A stretch of 39,818 nucleotides of DNA from Shigella phage ESh2. The position numbers were made by a program, and so were the translations under genes. The number at the start of each line of letters is the position of its first letter. Position 1 is the stretch's first letter. This document shows positions 152 through 39,818 of the stretch, one piece after another. A model generated the notes under the pieces. That model had not been told where the DNA came from. It made no database searches and saw only the letters and a list, made by a program, of their open reading frames with translations. The DNA lies in sequence record ON528716; one strand, written 5' to 3'.

Positions 152-301
152 ATGTTCCGCTTATTGTTGACCTTGTTGCGGCATAGAGTCACCTACCGAT
201 TTCTTATGGTACTTTGTGCTGCCCTTGGGTACGCATCTCTTACTGGAGACCTCAGTTCACTGGAGTCTACCGTTTGCTCTATACTCACTTGTAGTGATTA
301 G
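152..301 (+). CDS. 19.5: gene 19.5 small protein (49 aa), right-end gene expressed from phiOR
   Basis: ATG at 152 with SD gggaggag upstream; translation MFRLLLTLLRHRVTYRFLMVLCAALGYASLTGDLSSLESTVCSILTCSD matches T7 gp19.5 as recalled; below ORF-track size cutoff. Confidence 0.8.
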   Translation: MFRLLLTLLRHRVTYRFLMVLCAALGYASLTGDLSSLESTVCSILTCSD

Positions 302-359
302 GGTCTTCCTGACCGACTGATGGCTCACCGAGGGATTCAGCGGTATGATTGCATCACAC

Positions 360-480
360 CACTTCATCCCTATAGAGTCAAGTCCTAAGGTATACCCATA
401 AAGAGCCTCTAATGGTCTATCCGTAAGGTCTATACCTAAAGATAGGCCATCCTATCAGTGTCACCTAAAGAGGGTCTTAG
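360..480. repeat. short cctaaag/ccataaag-type repeats on the right-end side of the terminal repeat
   Basis: Repeated cctaagg, ccataaag, cctaaag motifs visible directly; T7 has analogous short repeats flanking the terminal redundancy. Confidence 0.5.
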
Positions 481-541
481 AGAGGGCCTAATGGGTTCCT
501 AGACGGTCCTTTAAAATATACCATAAAAATCTGAGTGACTA

Positions 542-712
542 TCTCACAGTGTACGGACCTAAAGTTCCCCCCATAGGGGTACCTAAAGCCCAGCCAATCA
601 CCTAAAGACAACCTTCGGTTGACCTTGAGGGTCCCTAAGGGTTGGGATTGACCCTTGGGTTTATCTTTGAGTTGGTCCTTTGGTGTTACCTTGAGTGTCT
701 CTTCTTGTCCCT
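542..712. repeat. terminal repeat (single collapsed copy) containing the physical genome left end / concatemer junction
   Basis: tctcacagtgtacggacctaaagttcccc... matches the first bases of the T7 left end; length about 160-170 bp inferred from T7, cannot be delimited from a single copy. Confidence 0.55.
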
Positions 713-714
713 AT

Positions 715-885
715 CTGTTACAGCCTCCTAAAGTATCCTCCTAAAGTCACCTCCTAACGTCCATCCTAAAGCCTACTCCTAAAGCCTACACCTAAAGACA
801 CCATCAAGTCAACGCCTATCTTAAAGTTTAAACATAAAGACCATACCTAAAGACACTACATAAAGACCATACCTAACGATGCCTT
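715..885. repeat. array of cctaaag-type heptamer repeats (left-end repeats)
   Basis: ctcctaaag, tcctcctaaag, acctcctaacg, atcctaaag, ctcctaaag, acacctaaag, cataaagaccatacctaaaga x2 seen directly. Confidence 0.7.
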
Positions 886-938
886 GTTGTTGGCCATAAA
901 GAGATACCTTAATCATAATCTTTAATCATTGTCTTTAT

Positions 939-961
939 TAATACGACTCACTATAAGGAGA
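939..961 (+). promoter_or_regulatory. T7 RNAP promoter phiOL
   Basis: taatacgactcactataaggaga, 23-bp T7 class promoter consensus with A at +1. Confidence 0.8.
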
Positions 962-1014
962 GGACACTTAAAGAAACTCAAAAGAGATTAATTTAAAATT
1001 TATCAAAAAGAGTA

Positions 1015-1043
1015 TTGACTTAAAGTCTAACCTATAGGATACT
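1015..1043 (+). promoter_or_regulatory. E. coli sigma70 early promoter A1
   Basis: TTGACT (1015-1020), 17-bp spacer, GATACT (1038-1043); matches T7 A1 as recalled. Confidence 0.8.
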
Positions 1044-1140
1044 ATGAGCCATCGAGAGGGACACGGCGAATAGCCATCATAATCGACACCGGGTCAAACG
1101 GTTAAGTAGACAGCCTGATAAGTCGTATGAAAAACAGGTA

Positions 1141-1170
1141 TTGACAACATGAAGTAACATGAAGTAAGAT
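1141..1170 (+). promoter_or_regulatory. E. coli sigma70 early promoter A2
   Basis: TTGACA (1141-1146), 18-bp spacer, TAAGAT (1165-1170). Confidence 0.75.
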
Positions 1171-1245
1171 ACACAGCGTCAACCACTGATACGGTGTCTT
1201 CTAGGCGACTTAAGCGCACCACGGCACATAAAGTGAAACAAACGG

Positions 1246-1274
1246 TTGACAACATGAAGTAAACACGGTACGAT
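1246..1274 (+). promoter_or_regulatory. E. coli sigma70 early promoter A3
   Basis: TTGACA (1246-1251), 17-bp spacer, TACGAT (1269-1274). Confidence 0.75.
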
Positions 1275-1396
1275 GTACCACATGAAACGACAGTGAGGCG
1301 CAACACTGAAACGCGCTAGGGTCTAACGAAACCTGACCGACATGCTCTTTAACAATCTGGTAAATAGCTCTTGAGTGTACCGTATAAAGCGAATAA

Positions 1397-1430
1397 CTCA
1401 AGGTCGCACTGAAAGCGTGGCCTTTATGAT
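1397..1430 (+). promoter_or_regulatory. RNase III processing hairpin (R0.3-like)
   Basis: ctcaaggtcgcactgaaagcgtggcctttatgat; member of conserved hairpin family. Confidence 0.6.
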
Positions 1431-1464
1431 ATTCACTTAACGAACTAACATGAGGTAACACCAA

Positions 1465-1923
1465 ATGATTTTCACTAAAGAGCCCGCTAACGTCTTCTAT
1501 GTACTGGTGTCAGCTTTCCGTTCCAACCTCGACGATGAGGTGAACATGAGTCGCCACCGCCACATGGTTAGTACTTTACGTGCCGCACCGGGTCTTTACG
1601 GCTCCGTTGAGTCAACCGATTTGACAGGATGCTATCGTGAGGCAATCGCAAGCGCACCGACTGAGGAAAAAACGATTCGTGTACGCTGCAAGGACAAAGA
1701 GCAGGCACTCAATGTTGCACGCTTAGCTTGTAATGAGTGGGAGCAAGATTGCGTACTGGTATACAAATCACAGACTCACACGGCTGGTCTGGTGTACGCT
1801 AAAGGTTTCAATGGGTATAAGGCCGAACGTCTGCTGGGTAGCTTCCAAGAAGTGCCTAAAGGCGCACCGCTTAAAGGCTGCTTCACGATTGATGAGTTCG
1901 GTCGCCGCTGGCAAGTACAGTAA
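1465..1923 (+). CDS. 0.3: S-adenosylmethionine lyase/hydrolase (T3-type SAMase), anti-restriction
   Basis: 152 aa; SD gaggt 8 nt upstream; MIFTKEPANVFYVLVSAFRSN... near-identical to T3 gp0.3 SAMase as recalled, unrelated to T7 Ocr. Confidence 0.85.
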   Translation: MIFTKEPANVFYVLVSAFRSNLDDEVNMSRHRHMVSTLRAAPGLYGSVESTDLTGCYREAIASAPTEEKTIRVRCKDKEQALNVARLACNEWEQDCVLVYKSQTHTAGLVYAKGFNGYKAERLLGSFQEVPKGAPLKGCFTIDEFGRRWQVQ

Positions 1924-22493: not shown

Positions 22494-22516
22494 TAATACG
22501 ACTCACTATAGGGAGA
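22494..22516 (+). promoter_or_regulatory. T7 RNAP promoter phi10 (major capsid promoter)
   Basis: taatacgactcactatagggaga followed by leader hairpin gggagaccacaacggtttccctctagaaat and strong SD aaggaga. Confidence 0.95.
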
Positions 22517-22574: not shown

Positions 22575-23606
22575 ATGGCTACTATGACTGGTGGACAGCA
22601 ACTGGGTACTAACCAAGGTAAAGGTGCAAGTGCTTCTGATAAACTGGCGTTGTTCTTGAAGGTGTTTGGTGGTGAAGTTCTGACTGCATTCGCGCGTACC
22701 TCTGTGACCACTTCTCGCCACATGGTCCGTTCCATCTCCAGCGGTAAATCCGCTCAGTTCCCTGTACTGGGTCGCACTCAGGCAGCTTACTTGTCTCCTG
22801 GTGAGAACCTCGATGATATTCGTAAAGACATCAAACACACCGAGAAGACCATCACCATTGATGGCCTCCTGACGGCAGACGTTCTGATTTACGACATTGA
22901 GGACGCGATGAACCACTATGACGTTCGCTCTGAGTATACCTCTCAGTTGGGTGAATCTCTGGCTATGGCTGCTGATGGTGCGGTTCTGGCTGAGATTGCT
23001 GGCCTGTGTAACTTGGCGAGCGCCTCTAATGAGAACATCGAGGGCTTAGGTACTGCTACCGTAATTGAGACCACTCAGGACAAGGCGGCACTTACCGACC
23101 AAGTTGCGCTTGGTAAGGAGATTATTGCGGCTCTGACTAAGGCTCGTGCGGCTCTGACTAAGAACTATGTTCCGGCTGCTGACCGTGTGTTCTACTGCGA
23201 CCCAGATAGCTACTCTGCGATTCTGGCAGCACTTATGCCGAACGCAGCAAACTACGCTGCTCTGATTGACCCTGAGAAGGGTTCTATCCGCAACGTTATG
23301 GGCTTTGAGGTTGTAGAAGTTCCCCACCTCACCGCTGGTGGTGCTGGCACCTCTCGTGCGGATGCTACCGGTCAGAAGCACGCCTTCCCTGCCACTAAGA
23401 GTGGTAACGACAAGGTTGCTAAGGACAACGTTATCGGCCTGTTCATGCACCGCTCTGCTGTAGGTACTGTTAAACTGCGCGACTTAGCTCTGGAGCGCGC
23501 TCGCCGTGCTAACTTCCAAGCAGACCAGATTATTGCTAAGTATGCAATGGGCCACGGTGGTCTGCGCCCAGAAGCTGCTGGTGCAGTGGTTTTCAAGGGG
23601 AAGTAA
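22575..23606 (+). CDS. 10: major capsid protein 10A
   Basis: 343 aa; MATMTGGQQLGTNQGKG...LALFLKVFGGEVLTAFARTSVTTSRHMVRS; matches T7 gp10A. Confidence 0.98.
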   Translation: MATMTGGQQLGTNQGKGASASDKLALFLKVFGGEVLTAFARTSVTTSRHMVRSISSGKSAQFPVLGRTQAAYLSPGENLDDIRKDIKHTEKTITIDGLLTADVLIYDIEDAMNHYDVRSEYTSQLGESLAMAADGAVLAEIAGLCNLASASNENIEGLGTATVIETTQDKAALTDQVALGKEIIAALTKARAALTKNYVPAADRVFYCDPDSYSAILAALMPNAANYAALIDPEKGSIRNVMGFEVVEVPHLTAGGAGTSRADATGQKHAFPATKSGNDKVAKDNVIGLFMHRSAVGTVKLRDLALERARRANFQADQIIAKYAMGHGGLRPEAAGAVVFKGK

Positions 23607-23764
23607 TGCTGGGAGTGGCCTCAACGGTCGCTGCTAGTCCCGAGGAGGAGAGTGTTACTTCAACAGAAGAAACCTTAACGCCAGCACAGAAGGCCGCACG
23701 CACCCGCGCTGCTAACAAAGCCCGAAAGGAAGCTGAGTTGGCTGCTGCCACCGCTGAGCAATAA
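22575..23764 (+). CDS. 10: minor capsid protein 10B produced by -1 ribosomal frameshift near 23588-23594
   Basis: The -1 frame downstream of g gtt ttc stays open to TAA 23762-23764 and encodes ...FQGEVMLGVASTVAASPEEESVTSTEETLTPAQKAARTRAANKARKEAELAAATAEQ, matching the T7 10B extension. Confidence 0.65.
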
Positions 23765-23773
23765 CTAGCATAA

Positions 23774-23811
23774 CCCCTTGGGGCCTCTAAACGGGTCTTG
23801 AGGGGTTTTTT
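23774..23811 (+). terminator. T7 RNAP terminator Tphi
   Basis: ccccttggggcctctaaacgggtcttgagggg hairpin followed by tttttt; matches the canonical T7 terminator. Confidence 0.95.
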
Positions 23812-23832
23812 GCTGAAAGGAGGAGGAACTAT

Positions 23833-37938: not shown

Positions 37939-39699
37939 GTGTCTACTCAAGCCAATCGTAATGCGCTCGTAGTGGCGCAACTGAAAGGAGACTTCGTGGC
38001 GTTCCTGTTCGTCTTATGGAAGGCGTTAAACCTTCCGGTGCCCACTAAGTGTCAGATTGACATGGCTAAGGTGCTGGCGAATGGGGACAACAAGAAGTTC
38101 ATCCTACAGGCTTTCCGTGGTATCGGTAAGTCGTTCATCACATGTGCGTTCGTTGTGTGGTCCTTATGGAGAGACCCTCAGTTGAAGATACTTATCGTAT
38201 CAGCCTCTAAGGAACGTGCAGACGCTAACTCCATCTTTATTAAGAACATCATTGACCTGCTGCCGTTCCTCGCTGAGTTAAAGCCAAGACCCGGACAGCG
38301 TGACTCTGTAATCAGCTTTGACGTTGGCCCAGCTAAGCCTGACCACTCTCCTAGTGTAAAATCGGTAGGTATCACTGGTCAGTTAACTGGTAGTCGTGCT
38401 GACATTATCATTGCGGATGACGTTGAGATTCCGTCTAACAGTGCGACTATGGGTGCCCGTGAGAAGCTATGGACTCTTGTTCAGGAGTTCGCTGCGTTAC
38501 TTAAACCGCTGCCGTCCTCTCGCGTTATCTACCTTGGTACGCCTCAGACAGAGATGACTCTCTATAAGGAACTTGAGGATAACCGTGGGTATACCACTAT
38601 CATCTGGCCTGCTCTGTACCCAAGGACGCGTGAAGAGAACCTCTATTACTCACAGCGTCTTGCTCCTATGTTACGCGCTGAGTACGATGAGAACCCTGAG
38701 GCACTAGCTGGGACTCCAACAGACCCTGTGCGCTTCGACCGTGATGACCTCCGTGAACGTGAGTTGGAATACGGTAAGGCTGGCTTCACATTACAGTTCA
38801 TGCTTAACCCGAACCTTAGTGATGCCGAGAAGTACCCTCTGAGGCTCCGTGACGCTATCGTAGCGGCCTTAGACTTAGAGAAGGCACCAATGCACTATCA
38901 GTGGCTTCCGAACCGTCAGAACATCATTGAGGACCTTCCTAACGTTGGCCTTAAGGGTGATGACCTTCATACGTATCACGATTGCTCCAACAACTCCGGT
39001 CAGTACCAACAGAAGATTCTGGTCATTGACCCCAGTGGTCGCGGTAAGGACGAAACAGGTTACGCTGTGTTGTACACCCTGAACGGTTACATCTACCTTA
39101 TGGAAGCTGGAGGTTTCCGTGATGGTTACTCCGATAAGACCCTTGAGTTGCTCGCTAAGAAAGCCAAGCAGTGGGGAGTCCAGACGGTTGTCTACGAGAG
39201 TAACTTCGGTGACGGTATGTTTGGTAAGGTGTTCAGTCCTATCCTCCTTAAACACCACAACTGTGCGATGGAAGAGATTCGCGCTCGTGGTATGAAAGAG
39301 ATGCGTATTTGTGATACCCTTGAGCCAGTCATGCAAACTCACCGCCTTGTCATTCGTGATGAGGTCATTAGGGCCGACTACCAGTCCGCTCGTGACGTAG
39401 ACGGTAAGCATGACGTTAAGTACTCGCTGTTCTACCAGATGACCCGTATCACTCGTGAGAAAGGCGCTCTGGCTCATGATGACCGATTGGATGCCCTTGC
39501 GTTAGGCATTGAGTATCTCCGCGAGTCCATGCAGTTGGATTCAGTTAAGGTCGAAGGTGAAGTACTTGCTGACTTCCTTGAGGAGCACATGATGCGTCCT
39601 ACAGTGTCTGCTGCCCACATCATTGAGATGTCTGTGGGAGGAGTTGATGTGTACTCTGAGGACGATGAGGGTTACGGTACGTCTTTCATTGAGTGGTGA
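37939..39699 (+). CDS. 19: terminase large subunit (DNA maturase B)
   Basis: 586 aa from GTG 37939 (SD aaggagg); [33 protein letters not shown]... Walker A-like GIGKS; matches T7 gp19. Confidence 0.98.
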
Positions 39700-39792
39700 T
39701 TTATGCAGTTGGAGTGAATAAGGATTCATTATTGCCAAGGAAGGCACTTTTTGTACGATTACTTTAGAATCAGTAAGTTAGGCCCTCAAAAT

Positions 39793-39815
39793 TAATACGA
39801 CTCACTATAGGGAGA
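39793..39815 (+). promoter_or_regulatory. T7 RNAP promoter phiOR (right-end promoter; its transcript continues across the window boundary into position 1)
   Basis: taatacgactcactatagggaga; window end ...gggagagga joins window start gggacgaaagg... to recreate the T7 phiOR leader. Confidence 0.9.
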
Positions 39816-39818
39816 GGA

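Follow-up and report, generated by a model that had tools for sequence, protein, structure and literature searches.

The capsid gene of Shigella phage ESh2 very probably carries a T7-type programmed −1 frameshift that makes proteins 10A and 10B

Is the 52-codon open reading frame that follows the major capsid gene of Shigella phage ESh2 a gene in its own right, or does it encode the C-terminus of a minor capsid protein 10B that would be made, as in T7, by programmed −1 ribosomal frameshifting? The window, i.e. the whole stretch of DNA analyzed, is a T7-like, genome-length contig of 39,818 bp, across which the T7 promoter core occurs 13 times. The phage records nearest to its first 25 kb are AV103, JacobBurckhardt, ESh6 and Yanou, with about 92–93% identity over about 91% of the length, and by these sequence comparisons the phage is a new relative of T7. 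Gene 10A occupies positions 22575–23606 (all the features described here lie on the + strand); it encodes the 343-residue major capsid protein in the zero frame and ends with the TAA stop codon at 23604–23606. Its product matches the Pfam family PF21703 (Gp10A-like, E=8e-113) as well as the T7 capsid protein 10A chains present in the PDB (E=4e-203), and the gene, flanked by genes 9 and 11, is the orthologue of the one encoding T7 gp10A. Upstream of it, a T7-type class III promoter equivalent to phi10, which would drive the gene 10 mRNA, was read in the sequence as TAATACGACTCACTATAGGGAGA and by pattern match at 22494 (22494–22516); the T7 record annotates phi10 at the matching position.

Since the frame is set by position 22575, the sequence GGTTTTC at 23588–23594 is read as G_GTT_TTC, comprising the third base of Val338 followed by Val339 and Phe340. 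It constitutes, in the 10A register, a slippery heptamer of the X_XXY_YYZ type, G_GUU_UUC, the proposed site of a tandem −1 slip. Three codons, AAG GGG AAG (9 nt), separate this heptamer from the 10A stop codon, in agreement with the original prediction, which had placed it directly upstream of the stop. The −1 frame is devoid of stop codons from 23540 to 23761 and closes with the TAA at 23762–23764, a run of 74 codons; it extends 53 codons beyond the 10A stop, which is the extension originally predicted when codons are counted from that stop. A slip on the heptamer would have 56 codons read in the −1 frame before the TAA (23594–23764, with C23594 read twice), giving a 10B-specific tail, QGEVMLGVASTVAASPEEESVTSTEETLTPAQKAARTRAANKARKEAELAAATAEQ, which runs from QGEVMLGV to AATAEQ and consists of QGEV plus 52 residues; the latter, encoded by 23606–23764, are identical to the peptide quoted in the original prediction. 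The predicted 10B protein, join(22575..23594, 23594..23764), contains residues 1–340 of 10A followed by the tail, i.e. 396 residues and 41.5 kDa, versus 343 residues and 36.1 kDa for 10A.

In the mechanism that we propose, most ribosomes would read G_GUU_UUC, then AAG GGG AAG, and stop at the TAA at 23604–23606, thereby producing the major capsid protein 10A. A minority would slip back by one base at the moment when the P site contains tRNA-Val paired with GUU and the A site contains tRNA-Phe paired with UUC; the slipped tRNAs would re-pair with GGU and UUU, respectively, and decoding would resume from the CAA at 23594 and proceed in the −1 frame to the TAA at 23762–23764, giving the minor capsid protein 10B. 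As a counterpoint, the P-site re-pairing from GUU to GGU is imperfect, involving two of the three positions. Note that a review cites the G_GU of T7 gene 10 as a variant form of the X_XX part of the tandem-slip motif, G_GU U_UUC being the shift site (Atkins et al. 2016, PMC5009743). It is from T7, Kvp1 and other relatives that we infer a slip on this very heptamer in ESh2, with an efficiency of the order of 10%.

How much of this can be read from the ESh2 sequence taken singly? The heptamer GGTTTTC is not enriched in the window (three copies versus 4.6 expected), so that no single-sequence feature is decisive. The chance of a 56-codon open frame is about 0.07 in random sequence; with the density of −1-frame stops found inside 10A (34 in 343 codons, the longest gap being 30 codons), it falls to p ~0.003, and to p ~4e-4 for the 74-codon run. 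What makes the case is that heptamer, register, position and open frame occur together and are conserved in relatives. Known cases of slippage by the RNA polymerase instead of the ribosome require runs much longer than four bases; the T run of the heptamer has only four, and transcriptional slippage was set aside for this reason.

The closest characterized counterpart of this arrangement is T7 gene 10 (Dunn and Studier 1983; Condron, Atkins and Gesteland 1991), an orthologous capsid gene with the same heptamer in the same register and the same net extension of 53 codons. The T7 record describes 10B as a joined CDS (295..1490 of the T7 locus, L001), and the 10A and 10B coordinates that we computed for T7 reproduce both ends. 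As originally predicted, the ESh2 extension matches the T7 10B tail: 52 of 56 residues and 164 of 171 DNA positions are identical. The two genes differ in that (i) 10A has 345 codons in T7 versus 343 in ESh2; (ii) the codons between the heptamer and the 10A stop are AAA GTG GAG in T7 versus AAG GGG AAG in ESh2, with the consequence that the tail begins with QGEV instead of QSGV and that a G_GGG run is created; (iii) at two more tail positions, A is replaced by E and E by K. The similarity continues downstream, where a terminator-type stem (23772–23807) and its T run start 7 nt past the tail stop. This element (23772–23811), identified by a terminator scan, coincides with the Tphi transcription terminator annotated in the T7 record, and the 50 nt that follow the tail stop are identical to those of T7 at all 50 positions; the claim that the tail ends right at the Tphi hairpin is therefore accurate. 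Altogether, as judged by sequence, the gene, the heptamer, the frame geometry, the tail and the terminator are all orthologous to those of T7 gene 10, and we consider it highly probable that the window carries the orthologue of the T7 gene 10 programmed −1 ribosomal frameshift that makes 10A and 10B.

The tail itself is bipartite. Its first half is acidic and Ser/Thr-rich, with a charge of about −6, and its second half, a basic, Ala-rich C-terminal stretch (AQKAARTRAANKARKEAELAAATAEQ), has a pI of 10.3. The tail matches PHROG 12582, labeled 'head protein', with E=2e-27. Among solved structures, no PDB capsid entry covers it, the matches corresponding to engineered or vector-derived tags.

If the heptamer is used for frameshifting, it should be visible as such in related capsid genes. 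We assembled a set of 85 capsid loci, comprising 80 loci from IMG/VR, the records of T7, 13a, ESh6 and Yanou, and the window. The heptamer is GGTTTTC in 77 loci, A/CGTTTTC in three and the T3-type CCCAAAG in five; N_GTT_TTC is thus found in phase in 80 of the 85 capsid genes, and in every locus the heptamer, whichever its type, is in phase and located 2–5 codons ahead of the 10A stop. It is identical in T7, 13a, ESh6 and Yanou. The phage 13a record carries a note reading 'slippery sequence'. When 78 distinct 10A genes are aligned by codon, Val339 is the sole column, among 17 conserved Val columns, in which the third base is invariant (GTT); the third base varies in each of the other 16, and overall Val usage in the alignment is spread over GTT (617), GTG (289), GTC (275) and GTA (144). 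Furthermore, the base preceding GTTTTC is a G in 77 of the 80 loci that have a heptamer of this type. The TTC codon of Phe340 is also invariant, which adds little since six of the nine Phe columns are. The conservation of the Val339 codon and of the preceding G indicates that the slippery sequence is maintained at the nucleotide level, and the alignment in this way shows a heptamer under nucleotide-level selection.

Two groups of relatives place this result in a broader frame. The 10B proteins of Kluyvera phage Kvp1 and Yersinia phage phiA1122 depend on the same type of heptamer, with a frameshift at a poly-U/Phe site, and the Kvp1 fusion was proved by mass spectrometry, which located the shift at TTTTCA (PMC2579914). 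The tails of the Kvp1-like loci of our set (L046 and L080) end in the same LTPxQKAARTRAANKA motif as that of ESh2, but Kvp1-type tails are 45–48 residues long, contain a different linker and lack Met. T3 and phiYeO3-12, too, lengthen the C-terminus of their orthologous capsid protein by means of a −1 frameshift close to the 3′ end of its gene (PMC2579914). There, however, the shift takes place at a lysine codon, with a C_CCA_AAG heptamer (L022, L024, L025, L027 and L028 in our set), and the tail is unrelated, with 84–94 residues and a Pfam Big_2 Ig-like domain (E=2.5e-10).

The region downstream of the heptamer is likewise constrained. The −1 frame is open beyond the 10A stop in all 85 loci, for 38–93 codons in 84 of them, and the +1 frame closes after 2–17 codons. 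Among the 17 distinct sequences of the T7 group, the variable sites located past the 10A overlap are distributed 15/9/30 over positions 1/2/3 of the −1-frame codons (chi-square p=0.0015). For the tail, pN is lower than pS in each of the 16 sequence pairs that include the window; the pN/pS ratio is mostly 0.07–0.4, higher values being obtained only in comparisons with just 2–7 substitutions per class, and that of the 10A body is 0.08–0.33. This pattern of substitutions shows a tail that evolves as a protein-coding sequence in the −1 frame, under purifying selection. The original prediction had argued that the conservation of the shifted frame in a diverged relative supports programmed frameshifting: the selection that we detect on heptamer and tail with the help of the 84 related loci strengthens the argument, but 'diverged' was an overstatement, the gene 10 region being 93% identical to T7 at the nucleotide level and 99.1% identical to Shigella phage ESh6.

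We now return to our opening question. In the ESh6 and Yanou records the tail appears as a CDS of its own, with 52 residues, and gene calls of this kind are the basis of PHROG 12582, a family of 52 positions. The ORF at 23606–23764 could be a separate gene translated from its own ATG, either by termination–reinitiation or by means of the G-rich, Shine-Dalgarno-like AAGGGG, in which case its product would not be fused to the capsid protein. Its putative start, the ATG at 23606, shares a base with the 10A stop codon (TAATG) and is invariant in the 17 T7-group sequences, and the AAGGGGAAG stretch at 23595–23603, about 5 nt from this ATG, is predicted to pair with the anti-Shine-Dalgarno sequence at −6.2 kcal/mol. 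However, an independent ORF has no need of a heptamer conserved at synonymous positions, the ATG is in part a by-product of the overlap with the TAA stop, and the stand-alone annotations are automatic gene calls, as a RASTtk note indicates. A motif, LTP[AQ]QKAA(R/I)TRA.NKA, is common to the tails of 41 loci whose linkers are otherwise different, and 17 of these loci contain no ATG upstream of the motif in the open −1 frame, so that in these phages the tail can be reached only from the capsid frame, which argues against a stand-alone 52-residue gene; on the whole set, 34 of the 85 tails contain no Met at all. Finally, 10B is annotated and reported as a frameshift fusion in T7, and mass spectrometry demonstrated the Kvp1 fusion (PMC2579914). 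We therefore consider a separate gene without capsid fusion very improbable. The TAATG overlap and the G-rich stretch make some independent translation of the tail conceivable, and some reinitiation at the tail ATG may occur in ESh2 on top of the frameshift.

Granting that the tail is fused to the capsid protein, does the shift take place on the heptamer? As the −1 frame is open from 23540 onward, a −1 shift at any of the last 21 10A codons would give a protein of the size of 10B. In particular, AAG GGG, present in ESh2 and its closest relatives, allows a perfect GGG-to-GGG re-pairing one base back. The shift might thus involve a P-site tRNA-Gly on G_GGG (23597–23600), or occur elsewhere within 23540–23604; in the former case the junction would read ...VVFKGEVMLG..., instead of ...VVFQGEVMLG... 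for a slip on the heptamer. The G run is, however, not conserved: T7 has AAA GTG, and two other loci have AAG ACG (L006) and GCG GCG (L009) at this position. By contrast, almost all loci have the heptamer, which does not vary at its synonymous sites, and the shift of both T7 and Kvp1 has been placed on the U-rich site (PMC5009743, PMC2579914). A shift away from the heptamer consequently seems to us very unlikely, and a tandem slip on G_GUU_UUC is retained as the probable source of 10B.

Efficient slippage on this heptamer apparently depends on its surroundings. Wild-type T7 makes about 10% 10B, and the proportion drops below 1% if GGTTTTC is transplanted by itself ahead of foreign sequence (Slootweg et al. 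2006, PMC1635266). Native 3′ sequence is probably needed for stimulation in ESh2, be it the distant Tphi region, a local hairpin or both. In E. coli dnaX and IS911-type cassettes, which also feature an X_XXY_YYZ tandem-slip heptamer used by bacterial ribosomes (PMC5009743), the heptamer is preceded by an evident Shine-Dalgarno-like element and followed, 5–6 nt 3′ of it, by a stem-loop. A search for a Shine-Dalgarno-like element some 10 nt 5′ of the ESh2 heptamer gave nothing convincing, the best candidate being GGUG at 23577–23580 (−5.1 kcal/mol with the anti-Shine-Dalgarno sequence), which sits within conserved Ala-Gly codons. On the 3′ side, in ESh2, structure is predicted only, with a hairpin 13 nt downstream of the heptamer. 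Unlike in dnaX/IS911, the stimulator reported for T7 is about 180–220 nt away, in the terminator: according to a passage of a review, the terminator CCCC, over 200 nt 3′ of the T7 shift site, is involved in the frameshift through a long-range effect that the passage describes as unexplained (PMC5009743, citing Condron et al. 1991). ESh2 has the same CCCC as T7, at 23774–23777 inside the terminator, 180 nt after the heptamer. Pairing of this CCCC with a G run near the shift site was considered and found no consistent support, G runs of at least four bases being absent from several T7-group sequences (L006, L009, L010 and L011).

The candidate local hairpin, at 23608–23638, has a predicted free energy of −17.6 kcal/mol and came up in all the folding contexts that we tried. 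Adding an outer helix (23600–23607 with 23654–23661) gives a 62-nt predicted structure (23600–23661, −24.4 kcal/mol) whose 5′ end lies 5 nt past the heptamer and which encloses the 10A stop codon; this outer helix is context-dependent, appearing in some foldings only. In 15 distinct T7-group sequences, the pairing of the hairpin is kept in 97.6% of cells, and six pairs change on one side, from GU to AU. A covariation test on the same 15 sequences yielded no double compensatory change, and shuffled sequences performed no differently. As regards folding energy, the 80 nt past the heptamer are at the 4.5th percentile of the windows taken from 10A, i.e. more stable than 95.5% of them, and in several other lineages no sampled 10A window folds as well as they do; such unusual stability is not seen in the 44-residue-tail and T3-like lineages. 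We also searched the different lineages for the architecture predicted in ESh2, defined as an outer helix of at least 5 bp that starts 3–9 nt past the heptamer and spans at least 35 nt. It was found at 5 of 62 target sites versus 9.6% of control positions, and the outer helix was consequently rejected as a common architecture, despite the low folding energy in many lineages. We thus regard it as possible, albeit rather doubtful, that the RNA directly 3′ of the heptamer (the 23608–23638 hairpin, possibly extended to 23600–23661) acts as a local stimulator alongside Tphi, perhaps recurring across T7-like lineages with unrelated tails.

The fact that the bare heptamer shifts so poorly out of context (PMC1635266) also bears on whether the ESh2 frameshift matters at all, as it would fit an open −1 frame that is merely a relic of a T7-like ancestor, frameshifting being negligible or without function in this phage. 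In one relative (L071), the tail is cut to 19 residues, which implies that it is dispensable in at least some lineages, and another (L012) carries a 7-codon deletion. In T7 itself, Condron et al. (1991) reportedly found 10B dispensable. Against such a relic stand the purifying selection exerted on the tail in the −1 frame and the maintenance of the heptamer at synonymous sites. In addition, the frame is open in every locus, with 38 codons or more in all but one of the 85, across several genera, and ESh2 and T7 are 100% identical over the terminator region that has been implicated in stimulation. An inactive or functionless relic appears exceedingly improbable to us.

In conclusion, the ESh2 feature is the orthologue of a characterized textbook case; it is already known as a type and not novel, holds no conceptual surprise, and its value lies in annotation rather than in discovery. 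For the 52-codon ORF, the appropriate annotation is that of the C-terminal part of 10B reached by frameshifting, join(22575..23594, 23594..23764), and not that of a separate 'hypothetical' or 'major capsid' gene, unlike in the closest records, ESh6 and Yanou. A local stimulator next to the heptamer, if real, would help account for the reliance of frameshifting in T7 gene 10 on 3′ sequence, a long-standing puzzle. From an engineering viewpoint, the 10B tail is a natural display site, as exploited in T7Select-type systems. For the family as a whole, the comparative picture is that of a G_GUU_UUC heptamer that is near-universal in T7-like capsid genes and held at its synonymous sites, followed by a tail that is modular.

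In the closest public records, Shigella phage ESh6 and phage Yanou, the 10B tail is annotated as a separate CDS of 52 amino acids (positions 1327–1485 in both capsid loci) bearing the product name 'major capsid protein' or 'hypothetical protein', and its counterpart in the window spans 23606–23764. PHROG 12582, a family of 52 positions, was made from such stand-alone calls. The separate CDS in ESh6 and Yanou is probably a mis-annotated frameshift product. Tail-like sequences were also found in the PDB, where about 20 unrelated chains (8rcx_A, 4iqz_A and others) end in ...AANKARKEAELAAATAEQ or bear an acidified copy of the tail, the matches covering residues 15–56 of the predicted 10B tail (window 23636–23761). 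These sequences look like vector-derived tags and not like homologues, presumably read-through or solubility tags originating from the T7 10B C-terminus in pET-type vectors.

The region comprising the tail and the terminator (23594–23811) is close to T7: synonymous divergence (pS) is 0.049 in the tail versus 0.197 in the 10A body, i.e. about four times lower, and the terminator is identical at 50 of 50 positions. This could reflect either an added constraint at the RNA level or recent recombination. Compared to the IMG/VR locus L014, the contrast between tail and 10A body runs in the opposite direction, which fits with mosaicism. Further downstream, the ribosome-binding region of gene 11 (23816–23832) is 3 nt longer than in T7 (AAAGGAGGAGGAACTATATG versus AAAGGAGGAACTATATG) owing to an insertion that is also present in ESh6, Yanou and another IMG/VR locus, L011.

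As to the genome itself, the contig lacks a terminal direct repeat (positions 1–200 and 39619–39818) and its end falls within a T7-type promoter (TAATACGACTCACTATAGGGAGAGGA at 39793). The window contains 13 promoter cores in total. The nearest genomes are only ~92–93% identical across ~91% of its first 25 kb. The contig probably represents a new species-level Teseptimavirus whose genome was assembled in permuted or trimmed form.

Across T7-like phages (80 IMG/VR loci, L005–L084), the heptamer G_GTT_TTC (window 23588–23594) opens, in phase, at least four distinct tails (e.g. L030 from position 2214 onward, L026 and L046): a T7-type tail of 55–58 residues, a Kvp1-type tail of 45–48 residues, a third type of 44 residues and a β-rich tail of 96 residues. 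The latter belongs to PHROG 7473, of unknown function, gave no Pfam match above the cut-off and lies on contigs that look Klebsiella-phage-like. T3-like loci, such as L025, use the heptamer CCCAAAG instead, with a Big_2 Ig-like tail. Since a single heptamer precedes several different tails, the shift site is conserved and the tail is modular. In two relatives, the tail is itself altered: a stop codon shortens it to 19 residues in L071, and seven codons are deleted within its conserved basic motif in L012. Judging from these two sequences, the 10B tail is dispensable, or at least tolerant to change, in some lineages.
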